A stretch of 63,731 nt of DNA, counting the filler, from a candidate division TA06 bacterium SM23_40 (GTDB lineage: Bacteria > LJUI01 > SM1-40): assembly GCA_001303705.1 (NCBI GenBank). It is 7 parts of 7 records of this genome, joined end to end, with 100 filler letters (N's around TTAATTAATTAA, not from the genome) between each part and the next. Parts side by side here need not be neighbours in the genome. Positions count along the whole stretch, not along the records: positions 51,068 to 57,355 come from LJUI01000143.1; 6 more parts are not named here. One strand, 5' to 3'. The position numbers were made by a program, and so were the translations under genes. Shown one piece after another: positions 9,613 through 57,455 of the stretch (position 1 is its first letter; each line of letters begins with the position of its first letter). Below the pieces are notes generated by a model. It searched no databases. It was not told the origin of the DNA and saw only the letters and a program-made list of their open reading frames with translations.

Positions 9613-9712
9613 NNNNNNNNNNNNNNNNNNNNNNNNNNNNNNNNNNNNNNNNNNNNTTAATTAATTAANNNNNNNNNNNNNNNNNNNNNNNNNNNNNNNN
9701 NNNNNNNNNNNN
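9613..9712. other. Artificial contig linker
   Basis: N-run/TTAATTAATTAA/N-run (stops in six frames). Confidence 0.99.
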
Positions 9713-50967: not shown

Positions 50968-51067
50968 NNNNNNNNNNNNNNNNNNNNNNNNNNNNNNNNN
51001 NNNNNNNNNNNTTAATTAATTAANNNNNNNNNNNNNNNNNNNNNNNNNNNNNNNNNNNNNNNNNNNN
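50968..51067. other. Artificial contig linker
   Basis: N/TTAATTAATTAA/N. Confidence 0.99.
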
Positions 51068-52636
51068 ACGGCGAGGACTGCTCCCAGAGGTTCGTACGTT
51101 ATCCGCGATCTCGCCCCATTCGGCTGGGTACAGGTCGGCAATCTGGCCGGGGCGAAGCAGGTCTTCTCTCTCATCGAGCTCGAGGACGGGACGCTTCTGG
51201 CGGGGACAGCGCACGAGGGCAAGGTCTTCAGGTCGCATGATGCGGGACGGACCTGGCAGGAGGCGATGGCCCTTCCCGGTGCCGAGGTGGTGAGGTCGCT
51301 GGCCGTCGATGACGGAGGGACGGTGTTCGCCGGGACATATCCGGGAGCGCGGCTATTTCGAAGCCGGGACAGGAGCGATCGGTGGGAGATGATACACGCC
51401 TTCCCGCATTCCCGGGAGATATATTCACTTCTCGCGGTCGGCACTGATACGTTGCTCGTCGGTCTGTACCCGCCCGCGGCGGTTGCTCATTGCACCGACG
51501 GGGGCCGCAACTGGAGCAATCGACAGCTCTTCCCGGACGAGGGTGGTGTCTTCTCGCTTCTCCAGTCTCGCGACGGGACGATCTATGCGGGAACCTATCC
51601 GGGGGGGCGCGTCTTCTCGTCCCGTGACCGGGGACGCTCATGGAAGGAGACAGGGGCGCCTGCAGGCGCTCAATATGTGAGAGCGCTTGTCGAAGATGAG
51701 GATGGCCGGCTCTTCGCCGGCACTTACCCTCAGGGCCGGGTATTCCGGTCGCTCGACCGCGGACAGCACTGGGAACTGACCGCCGATCTCGAAGGCGCTG
51801 AGGAGACGCTCTGTCTCCTTGCCGTGCGCGACAGGATCCTGTATGCAGGGACAACACTCTTCGGGCACATTTTCCGGACGACGGACGCCGGGAGTGCGTG
51901 GGCCGACGTGTCCGGCGATCTGTGGGGTGAGGGGTTGGCGGATTATGTTCACTGCCTCCTGGAGACTTCGGGGGGAGTGGTCCTCGCCGGAACCTCGGCG
52001 ACCGGAGACATATTCGCCCTGGGATACGCGCGCAACCGAGTGCACATCTCGCCCGTGTTTGCCCTGCCCGGCGAGGATGTCCTCTTCCGCGTCGTCGGGT
52101 GGGAGCCGGTCGCTGGAGGTGAACCTCCCATAATCAGAATACGGACGGGGCTCGACCCACGACTCGAGAATGCCGAACCGTGGGAACGATGTCCCCGCCT
52201 CGAAAACGGACAGATGCTGGGTGGCGTGTCTTCTGTACGAGAGGGAGACCACTTTCTCCAGTATCGGATCGACCTCCCGGACTCCCCATCTGCGATCGTG
52301 CCGGCGATTCGAGGAATCTCTATCGGCTGGGAGGCGGGCCCGACGGCCAGAGAGCCATCGGGCCGGGGGTATCTCCGGCCGCTCGCGGTGCGAGGCGAGG
52401 GGCTCGTTCGATTCAGAGTATCGGTTCCCGAAGGGGGATACACCGTCGTCACTGTCCTCGATCGCGCGGGCAGCATCGTGCGGATCCTCGTTGCGGAGAA
52501 TCGCCCTGTCGGGGGATTCGATGTCGTCTGGAACGGCAAAAGTCAAGTTGGTGAGATGGTTGATGAGGGGGTATACATCGTTTCCCTGATGTGGGGGAGG
52601 CGGTGTGCCGCGCGCCGATTCGCCTTCCTCCGTTGA
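51068..52636 (+). CDS. BNR/Asp-box repeat beta-propeller protein with degenerate FlgD-Ig CTD (5' partial)
   Basis: Repeated AGTYP.GRVFRS.D.G..W; C-terminal VVWNGK..G.MVDEGVY; frame open from the contig start. Confidence 0.85.
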   Translation, partial: TARTAPRGSYVIRDLAPFGWVQVGNLAGAKQVFSLIELEDGTLLAGTAHEGKVFRSHDAGRTWQEAMALPGAEVVRSLAVDDGGTVFAGTYPGARLFRSRDRSDRWEMIHAFPHSREIYSLLAVGTDTLLVGLYPPAAVAHCTDGGRNWSNRQLFPDEGGVFSLLQSRDGTIYAGTYPGGRVFSSRDRGRSWKETGAPAGAQYVRALVEDEDGRLFAGTYPQGRVFRSLDRGQHWELTADLEGAEETLCLLAVRDRILYAGTTLFGHIFRTTDAGSAWADVSGDLWGEGLADYVHCLLETSGGVVLAGTSATGDIFALGYARNRVHISPVFALPGEDVLFRVVGWEPVAGGEPPIIRIRTGLDPRLENAEPWERCPRLENGQMLGGVSSVREGDHFLQYRIDLPDSPSAIVPAIRGISIGWEAGPTAREPSGRGYLRPLAVRGEGLVRFRVSVPEGGYTVVTVLDRAGSIVRILVAENRPVGGFDVVWNGKSQVGEMVDEGVYIVSLMWGRRCAARRFAFLR

Positions 52637-52717
52637 AGGGAGGGCCGTCACCGCGTGGTCGGCGAAGGCCCCGGCTGGCGAAGCCCCCGCCTGGCGGAGG
52701 TGGAACGAGGACAGCGT

Positions 52718-53695
52718 ATGCGTATGAGTCGATCGAGCGTCTTGGGCATCGCGCTGGCACTGATCATCTTCGCCATGATCTTCTTCGCATTTCGTGGCCA
52801 GGTCGGCGACACGCTGCGGATCCTCAGGGGCTTCTGCTGGACCTACATGGTGGCGGCATGCGCACTTGCTTTCTCTAACTACCTGATACGATTCATCCGT
52901 TGGGAGTTTCTCCTCCGTCGCGCGGTCGGGCGCGCGGTCGGCGGACCGACACGATGGGCGAGCCTCGCCATCTTCTTCTCCGGGCTGGCAATGTCGGTTT
53001 CGCCGGGCAAGGTCGGTGAGGTTCTGAAGGCGGGACTTCTCAAGGAACTTGCTGGAACGCCACTCAGGCATTCAACGCCCGTCGTCATCATCGAGCGTCT
53101 CGCTGATCTTCTGGGCGTCGTCCTGCTCGCGGCCGTGGGGCTTCCTGCCTTCAGTCAGGCCGGGCCGATCGTCGCCGTCCCTCTCGTATTAGTCGCTCTC
53201 ATCATGCTCGTGCTGTCGAGGGAGCGGCTCTGCCTCTCCGCCCTGAGAGCGATGGGTAGAGTACCGTTCATAGGTCGCAGTACCGCTGCATTGACCGATG
53301 CGTATCGAGCGGGCCGTTCGCTCATCACTCCCTCCTCTCTCGTCGTCATCGTGCCCCTCAGTGTCGCTGCCTGGTTTCCCGAGTGTCTGGCCCTGTGGGT
53401 GATCATCCGCGGGCTCGGTGTCGATCTCTCGCTGCTCGCCGCTACGTTTGCCTATGCCATGGCCACGCTCGCCGGTGCCGTCACGCTCCTCCCCGGGGGC
53501 CTGGGCGCGACCGAGGCAAGCCTAGCCGGGCTCCTCATACTGTGGCACGTCCCCGGCGATGCTGCTCTGGCTGCCACGCTGCTCGTGCGGGCAGCCACCC
53601 TCTGGTTTGCCGTCGCCCTGGGGCTCGTTGCACTCGCGGCCACGAGACTCTCCATCTTCCGGGCATCGAGTCTCGAAGATACATCCACGGACTGA
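52718..53695 (+). CDS. Lysylphosphatidylglycerol-synthase-TM (flippase-like) membrane protein
   Basis: RFIRW, SPGKVGEVLK, ERLADL, PGGLGATEA. Confidence 0.88.
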   Translation: MRMSRSSVLGIALALIIFAMIFFAFRGQVGDTLRILRGFCWTYMVAACALAFSNYLIRFIRWEFLLRRAVGRAVGGPTRWASLAIFFSGLAMSVSPGKVGEVLKAGLLKELAGTPLRHSTPVVIIERLADLLGVVLLAAVGLPAFSQAGPIVAVPLVLVALIMLVLSRERLCLSALRAMGRVPFIGRSTAALTDAYRAGRSLITPSSLVVIVPLSVAAWFPECLALWVIIRGLGVDLSLLAATFAYAMATLAGAVTLLPGGLGATEASLAGLLILWHVPGDAALAATLLVRAATLWFAVALGLVALAATRLSIFRASSLEDTSTD

Positions 53696-53839
53696 AGGAC
53701 CACGAGCGCAGTGATGGTTGTACGGTCGCGCCCGGGATGCCGCACCTGCCCCCTGAGCCTGCCTCGCGACGATGAGGAAGCCCGGGGTTATCAGGGATGC
53801 CTGGCAACGTCGTCATCCCCGGGAGGGGCCATTTTTCGC

Positions 53840-53868
53840 TTGACATGTCAGCGAAGATATGGTAGAAT
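53840..53868 (+). promoter_or_regulatory. sigma70 promoter
   Basis: TTGACA-17 bp-TAGAAT with TG extended -10. Confidence 0.75.
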
Positions 53869-54137
53869 GCGAACCTCACTAGGGGTGGGGGAATATGTCA
53901 GCATGGTGCGAGGTAGAGAGAGGCCGCGACTATCTTCCCGGATCCAGGGGGTGTAGTGTGCGGTATTTTCTTTCGCCCCGAGAGAAGAGATGTGTAGTAG
54001 CCCGAAGGGATCTGCTTCACAGAAAGGGGGGATTCCGAGCAGCGAGGTAAGAGATCCTCGAAGGGTTCCTGTATTCCACTGTGGCATGTCGGATAGGAAG
54101 AGGAGCTTTCTATCCCGACACCAATTGAGAGGAGGAA

Positions 54138-54902
54138 ATGAGAATGACTCGACTGACTCTCGCGGCGGTCATTGTGTTTGCGGTCGCGCTCGTTGGGTGC
54201 CAGCAGGAGGCGCCGCTGCCCGTGGCAAGCGATTCCAGCAACCCTGAGGGGCCGTTCTTCGGCTCGGAGGTGCCGGTCGGTGTGCTCACGCCGGAGTACA
54301 CCACCGGTTCGGCCATGTTGACCCCCGAGCAGGTCACGCAGTTTTTCGGCATCGACGAAGTGACCCTCAGCGCGATGGAAGGCCTGGATCATGTCGTCAT
54401 CGATTGCTGGACCGTCGACACCATGGACTACTATTGGGATCTGCTCCACGAGAACTACAAGTTCTTCGGTGAGGAGCACATCCGTCACGTCATCTTGTGC
54501 AAGCTCAATCAGGGTGACTGGATCACGGCGGACATCGGTTGGTTTGAGTGCAGGGACTTCCAGCCGCCGCTGCTCCCGTTGAACCAGTACCTGATCGCTA
54601 TGCTCAATGACGTGGTGTGGGAACCGGTGTACGAGAAGAACTTCTGGCTGATGTGGGTTGACGTGACTTCGGGTGGCGTCGGGCTGCCGTGGGGCATCCC
54701 GCTCGATTGGGTGGCTGGCGTCGATTTCAACGTGAACACAGCCAATTTCAAGTACGATGATGTGTGTGGATGGAAGTACCCCGATATGATCATCTTCGGG
54801 CCCCATCCGCCGTTCCCGCCACCTCATCCGTTCCCGTTCAGTCTCCCGGGCGAGGATGGCGAGACCAGGCCGTGGTGTTTCCTGATCAACCCGTGGGACT
54901 AG
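54138..54902 (+). CDS. Hypothetical lipoprotein
   Basis: AGGAGG RBS, lipobox LVG-C, Trp/Asp-rich mature part. Confidence 0.8.
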   Translation: MRMTRLTLAAVIVFAVALVGCQQEAPLPVASDSSNPEGPFFGSEVPVGVLTPEYTTGSAMLTPEQVTQFFGIDEVTLSAMEGLDHVVIDCWTVDTMDYYWDLLHENYKFFGEEHIRHVILCKLNQGDWITADIGWFECRDFQPPLLPLNQYLIAMLNDVVWEPVYEKNFWLMWVDVTSGGVGLPWGIPLDWVAGVDFNVNTANFKYDDVCGWKYPDMIIFGPHPPFPPPHPFPFSLPGEDGETRPWCFLINPWD

Positions 54903-54932
54903 AAACGAGATAGGGTCTGATCAGATATCCCC

Positions 54933-54968
54933 GCAGGAGCCTTCGATTCCAGGATCGAAGGCTCCTGC
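54933..54968. terminator. 15-bp perfect inverted repeat (terminator-like)
   Basis: GCAGGAGCCTTCGAT-6 nt-ATCGAAGGCTCCTGC; no U-tract. Confidence 0.55.
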
Positions 54969-55150
54969 TGCGTAGTGCCGCTTTCGATGTTTGTGGATGT
55001 AGCAGGGGGCATCTCACCCGGATGAGATCGCCTCCGGGAGATCAACTCAAGGACCGATGTCTGATCTTCGTGCCGCATCTGTTCGATGACATCAGTCCGA
55101 CATAGATCCATGATAGTGCCTGTCGGCCTAGGGCTGGTCAGACTCTGTTC

Positions 55151-55238
55151 TGTAACAGCGAAGTGATAATGTCCTATTTAGGTAAAATGGGACATTTCTA
55201 TTTTGCTAAGAACGGGACAATTCTTATTTGCCTCTACA
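55151..55238 (+). mobile_element. 88-bp MITE with IS1202/ISNCY-type ends and 16-bp target-site duplication
   Basis: Starts TGT...AATGTCC, ends GGACATTTCTATTTTGC...GGACAATTCTTATTTGCCTCTACA; flanked by TGGTCAGACTCTGTTC (55135-55150) and TGGCCAGACTCTGTTC (55239-55254). Confidence 0.8.
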
Positions 55239-55254
55239 TGGCCAGACTCTGTTC

Positions 55255-55283
55255 TTGACTTCCATAGCTGCGGGGCGTATATT
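55255..55283 (+). promoter_or_regulatory. sigma70 promoter
   Basis: TTGACT-17 bp-TATATT, 33 bp before ATG 55317. Confidence 0.7.
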
Positions 55284-55316
55284 TGGAAGCGACAGAAAAG
55301 GGAGGAGGTCGTCCAT

Positions 55317-55868
55317 ATGAAGAGCTGCATAGTGGTTGCCGGCGTTCTATCGCTTCTGGTAGGCCTTCCCTCTGTGGGCGCGGAAAGCCCGGATGAGGAG
55401 AGAGGCGCTGGCGTACAGGCATATTCGGTGCCGACATACCCGTCAGCAACCCTGGAGCGATCCGAAGGGCTGAGCCTATCCGGGACTCCGGTTGGGTCCG
55501 GACTGCCCCGCCGTCCCGGGGTCTCCGTGGGGCGTCTCTCACTCCTCGATCCCTCGAAGATCCGCATGGCCCACGGCCTCTCGCTCGGCTTTGTCGGCGG
55601 TAGTGGGCAGAGGGGTCGATTTGAGAGCCGGTACCTGAACCGCATCTTCTATCCATTCACGCCCTCGCTAAGCCTGCGGCTCGATCTCGACTACGTCGTT
55701 GAGCCATTCGGATCTGCGAGTCAGAGTGAGATTCTGCCGGGTATGGTGCTCCGTTATGAGCCGAGCGACCACCTCCTGCTGCAAGTGCAATACCGTACGT
55801 ACAGAAACATGCGCTCGAGCTCCTGGTGGGCGAGTGATTTGTCCTCGGATCAGTCTCCACGCTGGTGA
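55317..55868 (+). CDS. Hypothetical secreted protein
   Basis: GGAGGAGG RBS, signal peptide MKSCIVVAGVLSLLVGLPSVGA, beta-strand-like C-terminal half. Confidence 0.7.
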   Translation: MKSCIVVAGVLSLLVGLPSVGAESPDEERGAGVQAYSVPTYPSATLERSEGLSLSGTPVGSGLPRRPGVSVGRLSLLDPSKIRMAHGLSLGFVGGSGQRGRFESRYLNRIFYPFTPSLSLRLDLDYVVEPFGSASQSEILPGMVLRYEPSDHLLLQVQYRTYRNMRSSSWWASDLSSDQSPRW

Positions 55869-56053
55869 CAGGAGCTCAGTCTGATGATCGTCGTTGTGTG
55901 CAGGCCGCTGTCTGAGAGTGGCCTGTTTGGTTCTTTCCGCGAGGAGGTTGGAGCTCTGTGCGGGATCCCCGCAGAACCGGCGCCGGAGCTGTGAGGGCCA
56001 TGAGAAGAGGATTTCGTCGGGGCGGGACCTTCTGGCTGGTGCCTTCGAGCGGT

Positions 56054-56279
56054 GGGGCAACACAGGACATGTGCTCTCCGCCAACAACCGGTCATTTCTA
56101 TTCTGCCGCGCAGACGGAAGAAGGTCTACACACCATAGCCTGACCACCCCTGGAGGAGGCGTTACAAGCCGCCTTCGTGGAGAGAGCGGAAGAAGCAGGC
56201 AGAGAGAGCTGCCTGTGCCGGGGCAAAATAGGACATTTCTATTTTGCTGAGAACCGGACATTTCTAATTTGCCTTCACA
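56054..56279 (+). mobile_element. IS1202/ISNCY-family remnants: degenerate right end, transposase C-terminal fragment and intact right end
   Basis: 56220-56279 carries two GGACATTTCTA boxes and ends ACA; 56054-56113 is a decayed copy; in between RKKVYTP*PDHPWRRRY resembles the PxPDHPWR tail of these transposases. Confidence 0.75.
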
Positions 56280-56295
56280 GTGGGGCAAAACGAGG

Positions 56296-56324
56296 TTGAC
56301 TTTTCGCGGCCTCTTCGCTATCCT
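56296..56324 (+). promoter_or_regulatory. sigma70 promoter
   Basis: TTGACT-17 bp-TATCCT upstream of the PorV-like gene. Confidence 0.65.
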
Positions 56325-56451
56325 CACTATCTTGGGAAATGGTACTGTATCTGTTCCGATTGCGGATTTCGGACCATCGCGGGAGAGGGTCGGGAGCGGC
56401 CGCGCAGTCCGGTTCCCCGGACGCGGGCATTGAGGCCCATAGGAGACCGCA

Positions 56452-57355
56452 GTGAAACGATCGACCAGAGAGCCTCATATATTTCAGGAGGTCATTGCTC
56501 TGCTGGCGGGAGTGACCCTGCTTATCCTGGTCCTCTCGCCTTACCCGTGTTCGGGCGATGTGCATCCCAAGGCCGGGACGACAGGACTCTCGTTTCTCAG
56601 GATCGATGTCGGCGGCCGCGGTGCGGCCATGGGGGGAGCGCATACGTCGGCCAGCGAGGGCGCATTCTCGATGTACTGGAATCCGGCCCTGCTCGCCCGG
56701 GTAAGGGGCTATGATCTCGCACTCATGCACACCGAGTGGTTTCAGGACATTCGCTACGACTATGCGGCCTTTGCCGCGGGTGGCGGAGACCAGGCTGTCG
56801 GGCTCTCTGTCGGCGCGCTGTACATGGGTGATATCGAGTACCGCATAGACACGCGGCAGGATCCGATTGGACATTTCAGTGCCGGGGACTATATGGTGGC
56901 TGTCAGCTATGCCCGATCGGTCCAGGGAGTTCATATCGGGGCTACGCTCAAGGCGATCCACGAGCGCATCTACCACGATACTGCGAGCGGCATCGCCGGC
57001 GATATCGGATTCGCATACGAGGTGGTGCACGTCTTCCCTGGAATCCGCCTGGGCGGCACCATCCAGAATCTCGGCCCGAAATTCCGTTTCAGAGATGTTC
57101 CGTTCAAGCTCCCCACACAATTAAGAGCGGGGATATCGTACCACTCCCCCATGGGGATGCGGATCGGTCAGCTGGTTGTGGCCGGCGATGTCACCAAGCC
57201 CAACGACGGTGATGTGAGAGCGGGCTTTGGGGCCGAATACGACTATAATGATCGGTTCCAGGTGCGTGCTGGCTACCGTGTCGGCTATGACACTGCTGAT
57301 CTGACCGCGGGCATCGGCGTGAAGTTCAAGTCGTACCGCGTCGACTACGCCTTCG
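56452..57355 (+). CDS. PorV/PorQ-family outer-membrane protein (3' partial)
   Basis: AGTTGLSFLRIDVGGRGAAMGGA, YWNPALL, LPTQLRAG, VDYAF. Confidence 0.9.
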
Positions 57356-57455
57356 NNNNNNNNNNNNNNNNNNNNNNNNNNNNNNNNNNNNNNNNNNNNT
57401 TAATTAATTAANNNNNNNNNNNNNNNNNNNNNNNNNNNNNNNNNNNNNNNNNNNN
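57356..57455. other. Artificial contig linker
   Basis: N/TTAATTAATTAA/N. Confidence 0.99.

Follow-up and report, generated by a model that had tools for sequence, protein, structure and literature searches.

Miniature IS1202-type elements in a candidate division TA06 genome and the probable insertion of their long-repeat relatives beside sigma70-type promoters

Introduction

Two short transposon-like elements, E1 and E2, each end exactly 16 bp before a promoter-like sequence in the genome of candidate division TA06 bacterium SM23_40 (GCA_001303705.1). Does this arrangement reflect a rule of target choice, and what is recognized if it does? Both elements lie in the window, i.e., the whole stretch of 63,731 nucleotides that was analysed here. 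An original prediction, made from this DNA, assigned the elements to the IS1202 family of insertion sequences (IS) and supposed that targets are chosen through sigma70 and RNA polymerase bound at promoters. Comparison of the window with metagenomes, related elements, and well-assembled genomes indicates, almost with certainty, that the group to which E1 and E2 belong inserts just upstream of sigma70-type promoters and leaves the promoter intact.

Elements and promoters in the window

The following features form the two cases:

55135-55150, no strand: left copy of the E1 target duplication, 16 bp, TGGTCAGACTCTGTTC, identical to 55239-55254 at 15 of 16 positions
55151-55238, plus strand: E1, an 88-bp non-autonomous miniature element with TGT..ACA ends, skipped in a related strain
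55239-55254, no strand: right copy of the E1 target duplication, TGGCCAGACTCTGTTC, spanning the entire gap from the element tip to the -35 hexamer
55255-55283, plus strand: P1, promoter-like sequence, TTGACT, 17 bp, TATATT (55278-55283), 10 of 12 matches in the promoter scan
56219-56279, plus strand: E2, the same miniature element minus its left end, with the tip ..TTCACA; left boundary approximate
56280-56295, no strand: 16-bp spacer between the E2 tip and the -35 hexamer, GTGGGGCAAAACGAGG, presumed copy of a target duplication
56296-56324, plus strand: P2, promoter-like sequence, TTGACT, 17 bp, TATCCT (56319-56324), 9 of 12 matches in the promoter scan

The coordinates and spacings given in the original prediction proved to be exact at both sites. 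The right end of E1 (...GGGACATTTCTATTTTGC...CTCTACA) stops at 55238 and is followed by 16 bp and TTGACT at 55255, and the right end of E2 (...AGGACATTTCTATTTTGC...CTTCACA) stops at 56279 and is followed by 16 bp and TTGACT at 56296. As had also been predicted, the two 16-bp spacers are unlike in sequence, and the first of them is the duplicated target of E1, with a single mismatch between its copies. A promoter scan of positions 53700-56600 returned four sites, P1 and P2 among them, against a mean of 1.0 in shuffled sequence; the string GGACATTTCTA occurs four times in the window with at most one mismatch, compared with 0.35 occurrences expected.

E1 begins with the left end TGTAACAGCGAAGTGATAATGTCC, carries two direct repeat units of the GGACA type in its right end, and terminates in ..CTACA; its G+C content is 35%, versus 60% in the surrounding contig. 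Within E1, at 55168-55196, ATGTCC of the left end and GGACAT of the right end form a 12-pair hairpin followed by a T-rich run, a terminator-like structure just upstream of P1.

E2 is alignable with E1 from about 56222 onward and retains only the right-end part. A left copy of the GTGGGGCAAAACGAGG duplication was looked for and not found, and the search for the left end of E2 led to a TGT at 56214 that yields no duplication. In metagenomic run X5, however, the left end (TGTAACAGG...ATGTCC) stands directly before 56221 in other copies; thus, E2 is the same miniature element minus its first ~30 bases. The 9-mer GGGGCAAAA occurs both at 56220-56228, the truncated edge of E2, and at 56283-56291, in the spacer behind it. 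We conjecture that a deletion running from the left duplication copy to an internal look-alike removed the left end, with a 3-nt difference left in this comparison.

Empty site and copy number

Contigs of four public metagenome runs were compared over positions 54900-56500. A 1237-nt contig of run X6 joined position 55134 straight to 55239; the 104 bases that were absent correspond to the 88-bp E1 and one 16-bp copy. This contig extended to 55527, had no listed difference over 55239-55336, and contained P1 (TTGACT-17-TATATT) unchanged. It represents an empty site, so that TTGACT lies outside the element, and the objection that the hexamer is part of the element, which had been raised along with the original prediction, is excluded. 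E1 is an insertion, and a related strain holds the empty site with the promoter intact.

Read depth over 56196-56303 was 130.6 versus 16.8 in run X2 (about 8-fold), with a smaller rise in the other runs, indicating that the right-end repeat is multi-copy in these communities; many foreign flanks were also found over the right end. Loose ends past 56280 in three runs read 15 bases and then TTGACA, in consensus strings of low agreement that lend weak support. E1 is short and non-coding, with matching ends, a target duplication, several copies, and presence/absence polymorphism, i.e., it has the features of a miniature inverted-repeat transposable element. The runs containing the E1/E2 stretch were marine sediment, seawater, and estuary metagenomes.

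Promoter signal in the flanks of related ends

Related ends were collected by scanning public metagenome and genome contigs for their common subterminal repeat, in which 17 bases are followed, after a gap of 5-11, by GGACA; at least 120 metagenome contigs and at least 119 genome contigs were recovered. From at least 248 ends, 32 were dropped (no CA tip at the expected place, flank shorter than 70 nt, or N) and 4 of the remaining 216 were removed as duplicates, leaving 212 unique flanks; all counts for this collection hold among the matches listed. The peak near 16 bp that the original prediction anticipated over many insertions was present: 50 of the 212 flanks matched the -35 consensus at 5/6 positions or better at offsets 15-17, versus 4.5 expected (P = 1.5e-36). 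The signal of the -10 hexamer was stronger, with 95 flanks matching at 5/6 or better at offsets 37-40, versus 8.3 expected (P = 1.5e-74), and both hexamers occurred together in 43. Since about half of the ends are expected to be promoter-distal, the observed fractions are near the values of a strict rule. The peak was visible separately in the metagenome set and in the genome set.

The 16 bp and all beyond them differ in sequence from copy to copy. When the flanks were aligned on the -35 hexamer, no further conserved motif was found in or around the duplication, save for the usual C before TTGACA and the -10 hexamer.

By record titles, the genome matches listed span more than 15 phyla, including Chloroflexota, several classes of Pseudomonadota, Acidobacteriota, Nitrospirota, Nitrospinota, Patescibacteria, Omnitrophota, Elusimicrobiota, Zixibacteria, Cyanobacteriota, Chlamydiota, Bdellovibrionota, Desulfobacterota, Bacteroidota (two loci, L219 and L238), and Bacillota. 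One locus, L141, belongs to a bin labelled as the archaeon Candidatus Methanoperedens; its flank is of the bacterial type, with -10 TATACT at the usual distance, and the contig is probably mis-binned.

Well-assembled genomes and protein-selected loci

The 3-Mb genome G001 contained 43 full-length copies and 6 fragments. Among the 31 copies examined (30 loci), an exact duplication of 14-17 bp was found in 24, a duplication with one mismatch in 2, and none in 5; the latter sit in tandem or nested arrays. The 32 distinct promoter-side flanks of this genome matched the -35 consensus at 6/6 positions in 9 cases, 5/6 in 14, 4/6 in 6, and 3/6 in 3, i.e., 23 flanks reached 5/6 or better and 29 reached 4/6 or better, while the -10 hexamer matched at 4/6 or better in 28. 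The start of an open reading frame (ORF) followed 27 of the 32 sites; this criterion was lenient and had no control, and the figure carries little weight.

Several promoters of G001 bear arrays of the type IS-16 bp-IS-16 bp-promoter with exact 16-bp spacers. Repeated hits at one promoter place the determinant on the promoter side and make the DNA upstream of the duplication dispensable for targeting. Such tandem arrays were observed at L270-L273 (G001:C1:221400-225400, 115100-118500, 1586500-1590500, and 186000-188800, respectively). In some dimers the inner 16-bp spacer came from another locus, e.g., from the L267 duplication, and the whole dimer was bounded by a local duplication; IS dimers therefore seem to move as units, or junction-like spacers seem to be carried along.

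All three copies in genome G002 had perfect 16-bp duplications abutting TTGTCA, TTGAAT, or TTGACA. The ten copies in G003, a metagenome-assembled genome of the Anaerolineaceae, included 8 with perfect 15-bp duplications; a -10 hexamer was located at offset 38 in 6 copies and at offset 36 in 1, and no -35 consensus was evident. The offset of 38 nt is counted from the tip; measured from the nearer cut, the distance to the -10 is 23 nt.

An independent sample was drawn by the protein family NF033594 from 400 genomes of another class, which avoids the bias of a DNA motif. Its 30 loci comprised 4 without a long ORF, 15 without a duplication (many at contig ends), 1 with a doubtful 12-mer, and 10 with duplications of 16-19 bp. 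TTGnnn followed directly after the duplication on the side of the left inverted repeat (IRL) in 10 of the 10, and on the side of the right inverted repeat (IRR) in 1 of the 10. The ends of these ten elements differ in sequence, and a good -10 mostly follows at 17-18 bp. The boundaries of elements of the 27-28-bp repeat group were also sought in the 30 loci, and four loci with long flanks gave no convincing inverted repeats.

Family assignment

The window encodes no transposase, and the family assignment is based on full-length relatives. The transposases of two of them, L029 and L092, matched NF033594 (ISNCY_2) with 387 and 414 bits at a cut-off of 250 (E = 7e-116 and 8e-124), with IS481 as a distant second; NCBIfam matches of the transposases were limited to ISNCY_2, IS481, IS630, IS21, and IS3, and Pfam identified helix-turn-helix (HTH) domains and an integrase core (rve). 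In an alignment of 36 sequences among the matches listed, residues D150, D171, D172, D211, and E256 were invariant, and Q263, seven positions behind the glutamate, was present in 35 of 36 (K in L048). The pattern D, DD, D, E with Q at E+7 is the signature of the IS1202 family in the available text of Siguier et al. (10.1101/2022.12.17.520857), and the IS1202-type assignment of the original prediction holds. An AlphaFold model (mean predicted local distance difference test score of 85.5) comprised two HTH domains, an RNase H-like core, a beta-barrel, and a long C-terminal helix; its best structural matches were IstA of IS21, TnsB, MuA, and retroviral intasomes.

Among the matches listed, 41 candidates for full-length elements were found, 1387-2088 bp in length and of the form TG(N17)TGTCC, with a single ORF of about 400-460 aa. 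The left end of E1 was identical to the IRL of the full-length element in L135 at 23 of 24 positions. Because of this match and the transposase signature, E1 and E2 are, as judged from their ends, miniature derivatives of an IS1202-family element that makes 16-bp repeats. Like IS1202 termini, the ends of E1 and E2 are of the TGT..ACA type with an inner block near position 20, and direct repeats of 15-17 bp, as in ISTde1, were found at E1 (16 bp) and likewise at the copies in G001, G002, and G003.

Orientation and transposase clades

A FastTree analysis of 60 transposase rows, in which supports are only of the SH-like kind and six long-branch rows are probably wrong ORF calls, resolved two clades among the matches listed, each with 99% local support. 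In clade 1, a promoter was called at all 12 IRL ends and at none of the 10 IRR ends; in clade 2, it was called at 11 IRR ends and not at 5, and at 2 IRL ends and not at 10. Insertion is thus oriented, as far as these flanks indicate, and the promoter-facing end differs by clade: IRL, beside the start of the transposase, in clade 1, and IRR in clade 2. The ends of E1 are of the clade-2 type and, as in clade 2, its IRR faces the promoter.

The spacing that separates the second D from the E follows the same division. It is mostly 42-45 residues in clade 1 (50 in three rows; 45 in ISKpn21) and in most rows of clade 2 it is 47-54 (two rows have 41 and 44). Siguier et al. (10.1101/2022.12.17.520857), in the part of the preprint that is available, describe 5-10 extra residues at this place as the ISTde1-type indel, which is present in most of clade 2, the clade of E1, and absent from most of clade 1. 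In a quick tree, ISKpn21 (L282, Klebsiella plasmid), which targets dif, and an ISNCY transposase from an Enterobacter plasmid (L281) fell within clade 1, and both share its D-to-E spacing. This placement, with small sampling and long branches, hints that targeting of XerC sites arose from promoter targeting, or the reverse.

The right tip reads TTGACA, the outward -35 consensus, in 35 of 39 full-length elements (L005-L212; among the matches listed). The miniature elements have lost it: their tips are CTCTACA (55233-55238) and CTTCACA (56274-56279). At a circle or tandem junction, the right-tip TTGACA, a 15-17-nt spacer, and the left tip (often TGTAAC/G/T) have promoter-like spacing. The idea that the enzyme seeks its own TTGACA tip as the target was rejected, as the tip lies away from the promoter in clade 1.

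The promoter as a landmark

What the transposase recognizes at these sites was analyzed through the positions of both hexamers. Among the 110 flanks with a poor -35 hexamer (among the matches listed), 45 had a -10 at 37-40 nt versus 4.3 expected. The distance from the tip to the -35 hexamer fell as the promoter spacer grew (r = -0.54, slope -0.59, n = 79, among the matches listed), and the same relation was obtained with unambiguous promoter calls only (r = -0.44, slope -0.47, n = 37; 22 of 10,000 permutations reached so low a value). Between the tip and the -10 hexamer, the distance had a spread of 1.0, versus 1.4-1.5 expected if positioning were by the -35 hexamer only. The dependence on spacer length and the small spread at the -10 indicate that the position of insertion is set jointly by both hexamers. 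Because the -10 is often kept where the -35 is poor or missing, the distance follows the spacer, and the TTGACA tip of clade 1 is at the far end, we infer that a promoter with RNA polymerase holoenzyme bound to it serves as the landmark, rather than a DNA word read by the transposase. Taken as a whole, promoter-targeted insertion with the polymerase-bound promoter as the landmark appears to us fairly probable. In the original prediction, the insertion beside an intact promoter is thus borne out by the empty site, the 212 flanks, the three genomes, and the protein-chosen sample, while the choice of the site through sigma70 and RNA polymerase gains indirect support from the dependence on the -10 and from hits at promoters lacking a -35.

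The same positions might be produced without RNA polymerase if the transposase itself read the promoter hexamers, the -35 and perhaps the -10, as DNA. In many lineages no single signal is stronger than TTGAC, the transposase carries two HTH domains, and the TTGACA tip of most full copies means that the enzyme already handles this word. However, the end with this tip is the promoter-distal one in clade 1, the tips of E1 and E2 differ from it, and 45 of the 110 flanks without a -35 hexamer keep the -10 at a fixed distance, as do the copies of G003 with the -10 at 38 nt. The position also shifts with the length of the spacer, and the reading of two words 17 bp apart with a flexible spacer between them is sigma70's own mode of recognition; we consider a transposase acting in this way rather unlikely. 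Somewhat less likely still is that the shape of the DNA is sensed, i.e., the bending or wrapping, negative supercoiling, or protein-free state of active promoters. The duplicated 15-17 bp carry almost no sequence information, a 16-bp stagger presumably needs strongly deformed target DNA, and the targets span more than 15 phyla, all of which would suit a structural cue, but a positioning accurate to about ±1 bp with respect to both hexamers, or a polarity strictly tied to the clade, is hardly to be expected from it.

Insertion could also be random, with only the copies upstream of promoters surviving selection, or the two cases in the window could be coincidental. Insertions that interrupt genes are indeed selected against in any genome, yet selection sets neither a distance of 15-17 bp nor a fixed orientation, and intergenic DNA has many harmless sites. 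The excess of both hexamers over expectation in the flanks, the -35 matches at 29 of 32 sites in G001, and the arrays with exact 16-bp spacers contradict random insertion, which is very improbable. Finally, the promoter might belong to the element as an outward-reading promoter at its right end; many insertion sequences carry outward -35 boxes, and TTGACA stands at the right tip here. This is refuted by the empty site, which keeps TTGACT-17-TATATT without the element; moreover, the target duplication separates the tip from the -35 hexamer, and the 16 bp and all beyond vary between copies, so that we give an element-borne promoter practically no credence.

Site choice, cut positions, duplication, and the intact promoter can be read from the compared sequences. 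An element of this group enters, with one orientation, the 15-17 bp that adjoin the -35 hexamer on its upstream side. Strand transfer takes place at two points separated by ~16 bp, at the upstream edge of the -35 hexamer and near -52, and repair duplicates the stretch between them. The tip then precedes the -35 by ~16 bp and the -10 by ~38 bp, and core promoter and gene remain intact. For the polymerase-bound promoter as the landmark, the following mechanism is proposed. The transposase, with its integrase/IstA/TnsB-like fold, would dock on the upstream face of the bound holoenzyme, on sigma region 4 or the alpha C-terminal domains. The stretch upstream of the -35 hexamer is the binding region of the alpha C-terminal domains and of upstream activators; docking on this face is proposed because both cuts, that at the -35 edge and that ~16 bp further up, belong to this stretch. 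A predicted complex of the G001 transposase (alignment A1) with residues 590-674 of its own RpoD gave scores of 0.01 and 0.00 versus a mark of 0.32, and it was taken as evidence neither way.

Several points weigh against this interpretation. E2 has neither a left end nor a duplication, and P1, P2, and every other target promoter are only consensus matches. The large sample of ends was drawn with an exact 17-mer among the matches listed and is not random. A duplication of 15-17 bp was found in only 9 of the 30 full-length elements with both flanks (7 perfect and 2 near-perfect) and none in 21 (among the matches listed); the latter, mostly from short-read metagenome contigs, are likely due to chimeric assembly or recombination between copies, which is an assumption. 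In clade 2, 5 of the 16 IRR ends had no promoter call and 2 of the 12 IRL ends had one. The Anaerolineaceae hosts without a recognised -35 may have their own -35 consensus. The contact between transposase and polymerase is a proposal, and a large transposase complex reading both hexamers directly would compete with it.

Genomic context

The window is a chain of at least 7 contigs with joints formed by N-TTAATTAATTAA-N linkers at 9657, 16185, 22683, 44603, 51012, and 57400; adjacency across these positions therefore means nothing. E1 and E2 are located on one contig of ~6.3 kb (roughly 51024-57356) with 60% G+C. Further features of this contig are as follows:

55317-55868, plus strand: ORF of 183 aa after P1, with ATG at 55317 and the Shine-Dalgarno-like GGAGGAGG in front
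55900-55926: terminator-like hairpin after the 183-aa ORF
56062-56114, plus strand: decayed third right-end repeat pair (GGACATGTGC...GGTCATTTCTATTCTGCC), local alignment score 53 versus a maximum of 41 in 500 shuffles
56452-57354, plus strand: ORF after P2 encoding a PorV-like outer-membrane protein (PF19572, E = 1.2e-08), ending at the contig edge

No Pfam family was found for the 183-aa ORF. The string GGTCATTTCTA occurs at 56090, inside the third right-end remnant. For annotation, this means that AT-rich blocks of 50-90 bp before genes in the window are transposon relics and not host regulatory sites.

The best promoter-like site of the region (53840-53868, TTGACA-17-TAGAAT with TG, 11 of 12 matches) has no element beside it and lies ~270 nt upstream of a lipoprotein-like ORF (54138-54902). 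A beta-propeller protein with a C-terminal domain of the FlgD_ig type is encoded at 51266-52636, on the same contig as the PorV-like ORF; the presence of these two proteins suggests that the host is a bacterium of the FCB group with a type IX secretion system.

Comparison with known systems

The IS1202 family has three subgroups that differ in repeat length, and a target (XerC/D sites) has been found only for the group with 5-6-bp repeats, according to the available part of Siguier et al. (10.1101/2022.12.17.520857). For the groups with long repeats, the available text of that preprint and of Harmer & Hall 2023 (PMC10132070) reports no target; promoter targeting would fill this gap, left in both family-defining papers. 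Our elements resemble the ISTde1 subgroup in the TGT..ACA ends, the conserved block near position 20, the 15-17-bp repeats, and the one transposase of 400-500 aa with HTH and DDE, two extra D, and Q at E+7. Their length of 1.39-2.09 kb compares with 1387-1404 bp for ISCARN53/62/63, which have 16-17-bp repeats in the portion of Harmer & Hall at hand (PMC10132070), and most of clade 2, that of E1, has the 5-10 extra residues between the second D and E. They differ in the promoter target with clade-specific polarity, in the miniature non-coding form of E1 and E2, and in clade 1, which mostly lacks the D-E insertion yet makes 14-17-bp repeats.

The ISAba32 subgroup (ISAjo2, ISKpn21), whose targets are the XerC/D sites dif and pdif, belongs to the same family: the transposase of G001 is 42% identical to that of ISKpn21. 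As far as the available accounts of this subgroup go, its insertion is likewise oriented, IRL being turned toward the target as it is in clade 1, a single site can take up several copies, and the space from the element end to the protein site corresponds exactly to the direct repeat (5 bp there, ~16 bp here). In those accounts, the target is a recombinase site and the repeat is 5-6 bp, which would be one helical turn shorter. Promoter targeting and dif/pdif targeting, the latter in relatives moving with carbapenemase modules, thus occur within one family. A single principle for the whole family is a tentative idea that we hold to be possible, somewhat short of probable: the transposase would dock on DNA-bound XerC or polymerase and cut at the edge and n half-turns away, with the sigma70 holoenzyme as a molecular ruler. 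If this is true, repeats of 5, 16, and 27 bp would differ from class to class by one turn of the helix, and the resistance-associated, dif-targeting ISAba32 group may derive from promoter-targeting clade 1. In uncultured phyla, element ends would serve as natural markers that locate working promoters to the base, and the right-tip TTGACA together with the 15-17-nt spacer of the circle junction would explain why the repeat is as long as a promoter spacer.

Brochet et al. (2009) are cited by Guerillot et al. in their work on TnGBS, ISLre2, and ISKra4. The original prediction knew of no description of a promoter rule, and here a precedent exists: in the available text of Guerillot et al. 2014 (PMC3942029), TnGBS, ISLre2, and part of ISKra4, which are Mutator-like, insert in an oriented way 15-17 bp upstream of the -35 hexamer of sigmaA promoters. 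The same text gives a peak at 16 bp from one inverted repeat, proposes that asymmetry of the ends sets the orientation, and proposes contact with the polymerase initiation complex by analogy with Ty3. Promoter targeting as such is thus already published, and what the available sources leave to the original prediction is the long-repeat groups of IS1202; a member of this family would work like TnGBS/ISLre2 and be unrelated to them. For the IS1202 family, no report of a promoter rule was found in open-access papers and preprints, supplements excluded; the promoter signal may already be present in the 229 insertions, given with 100-bp flanks, of Supplementary Table 1 in the Siguier preprint. The oriented insertion 15-17 bp upstream of the -35 is common to both groups as far as the published text reaches. 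The transposase superfamilies are unrelated, ours being rve/IS481-like with a fold resembling IstA/TnsB/MuA/integrase and not Mutator/IS256-like, and in our elements the whole 15-17 bp is duplicated. ISLre2 is nearly confined to Firmicutes in the available part of PMC9208149, whereas the present group occurs in more than 15 phyla among the matches listed. In practical terms, an insertion marks a probable promoter at base resolution in unculturable organisms, with 32 sites from one genome, and a single-protein system that inserts beside promoters without breaking them is of interest for genome engineering.

Among the integrases tethered to host factors, Ty3 integrase targets the start sites of RNA polymerase III via TFIIIB. 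It shares with our transposases the catalytic superfamily, by fold, and the insertion at a set spacing from an initiation complex with the gene left intact, as cited in the available text of PMC3942029. It differs in being eukaryotic, in using an RNA intermediate, and in its short repeat; tethering is experimental there and inferred here. Docking on the holoenzyme would, by analogy, resemble both the pair of Ty3 integrase and TFIIIB and the ISAba32-type relatives that insert 5 bp from a XerC site. With the Mutator-like elements, the resemblance is one of convergence: two unrelated transposase superfamilies share the same landing point ~16 bp upstream of the -35 hexamer, suggesting that the upstream face of the initiation complex offers both of them one physical landmark.

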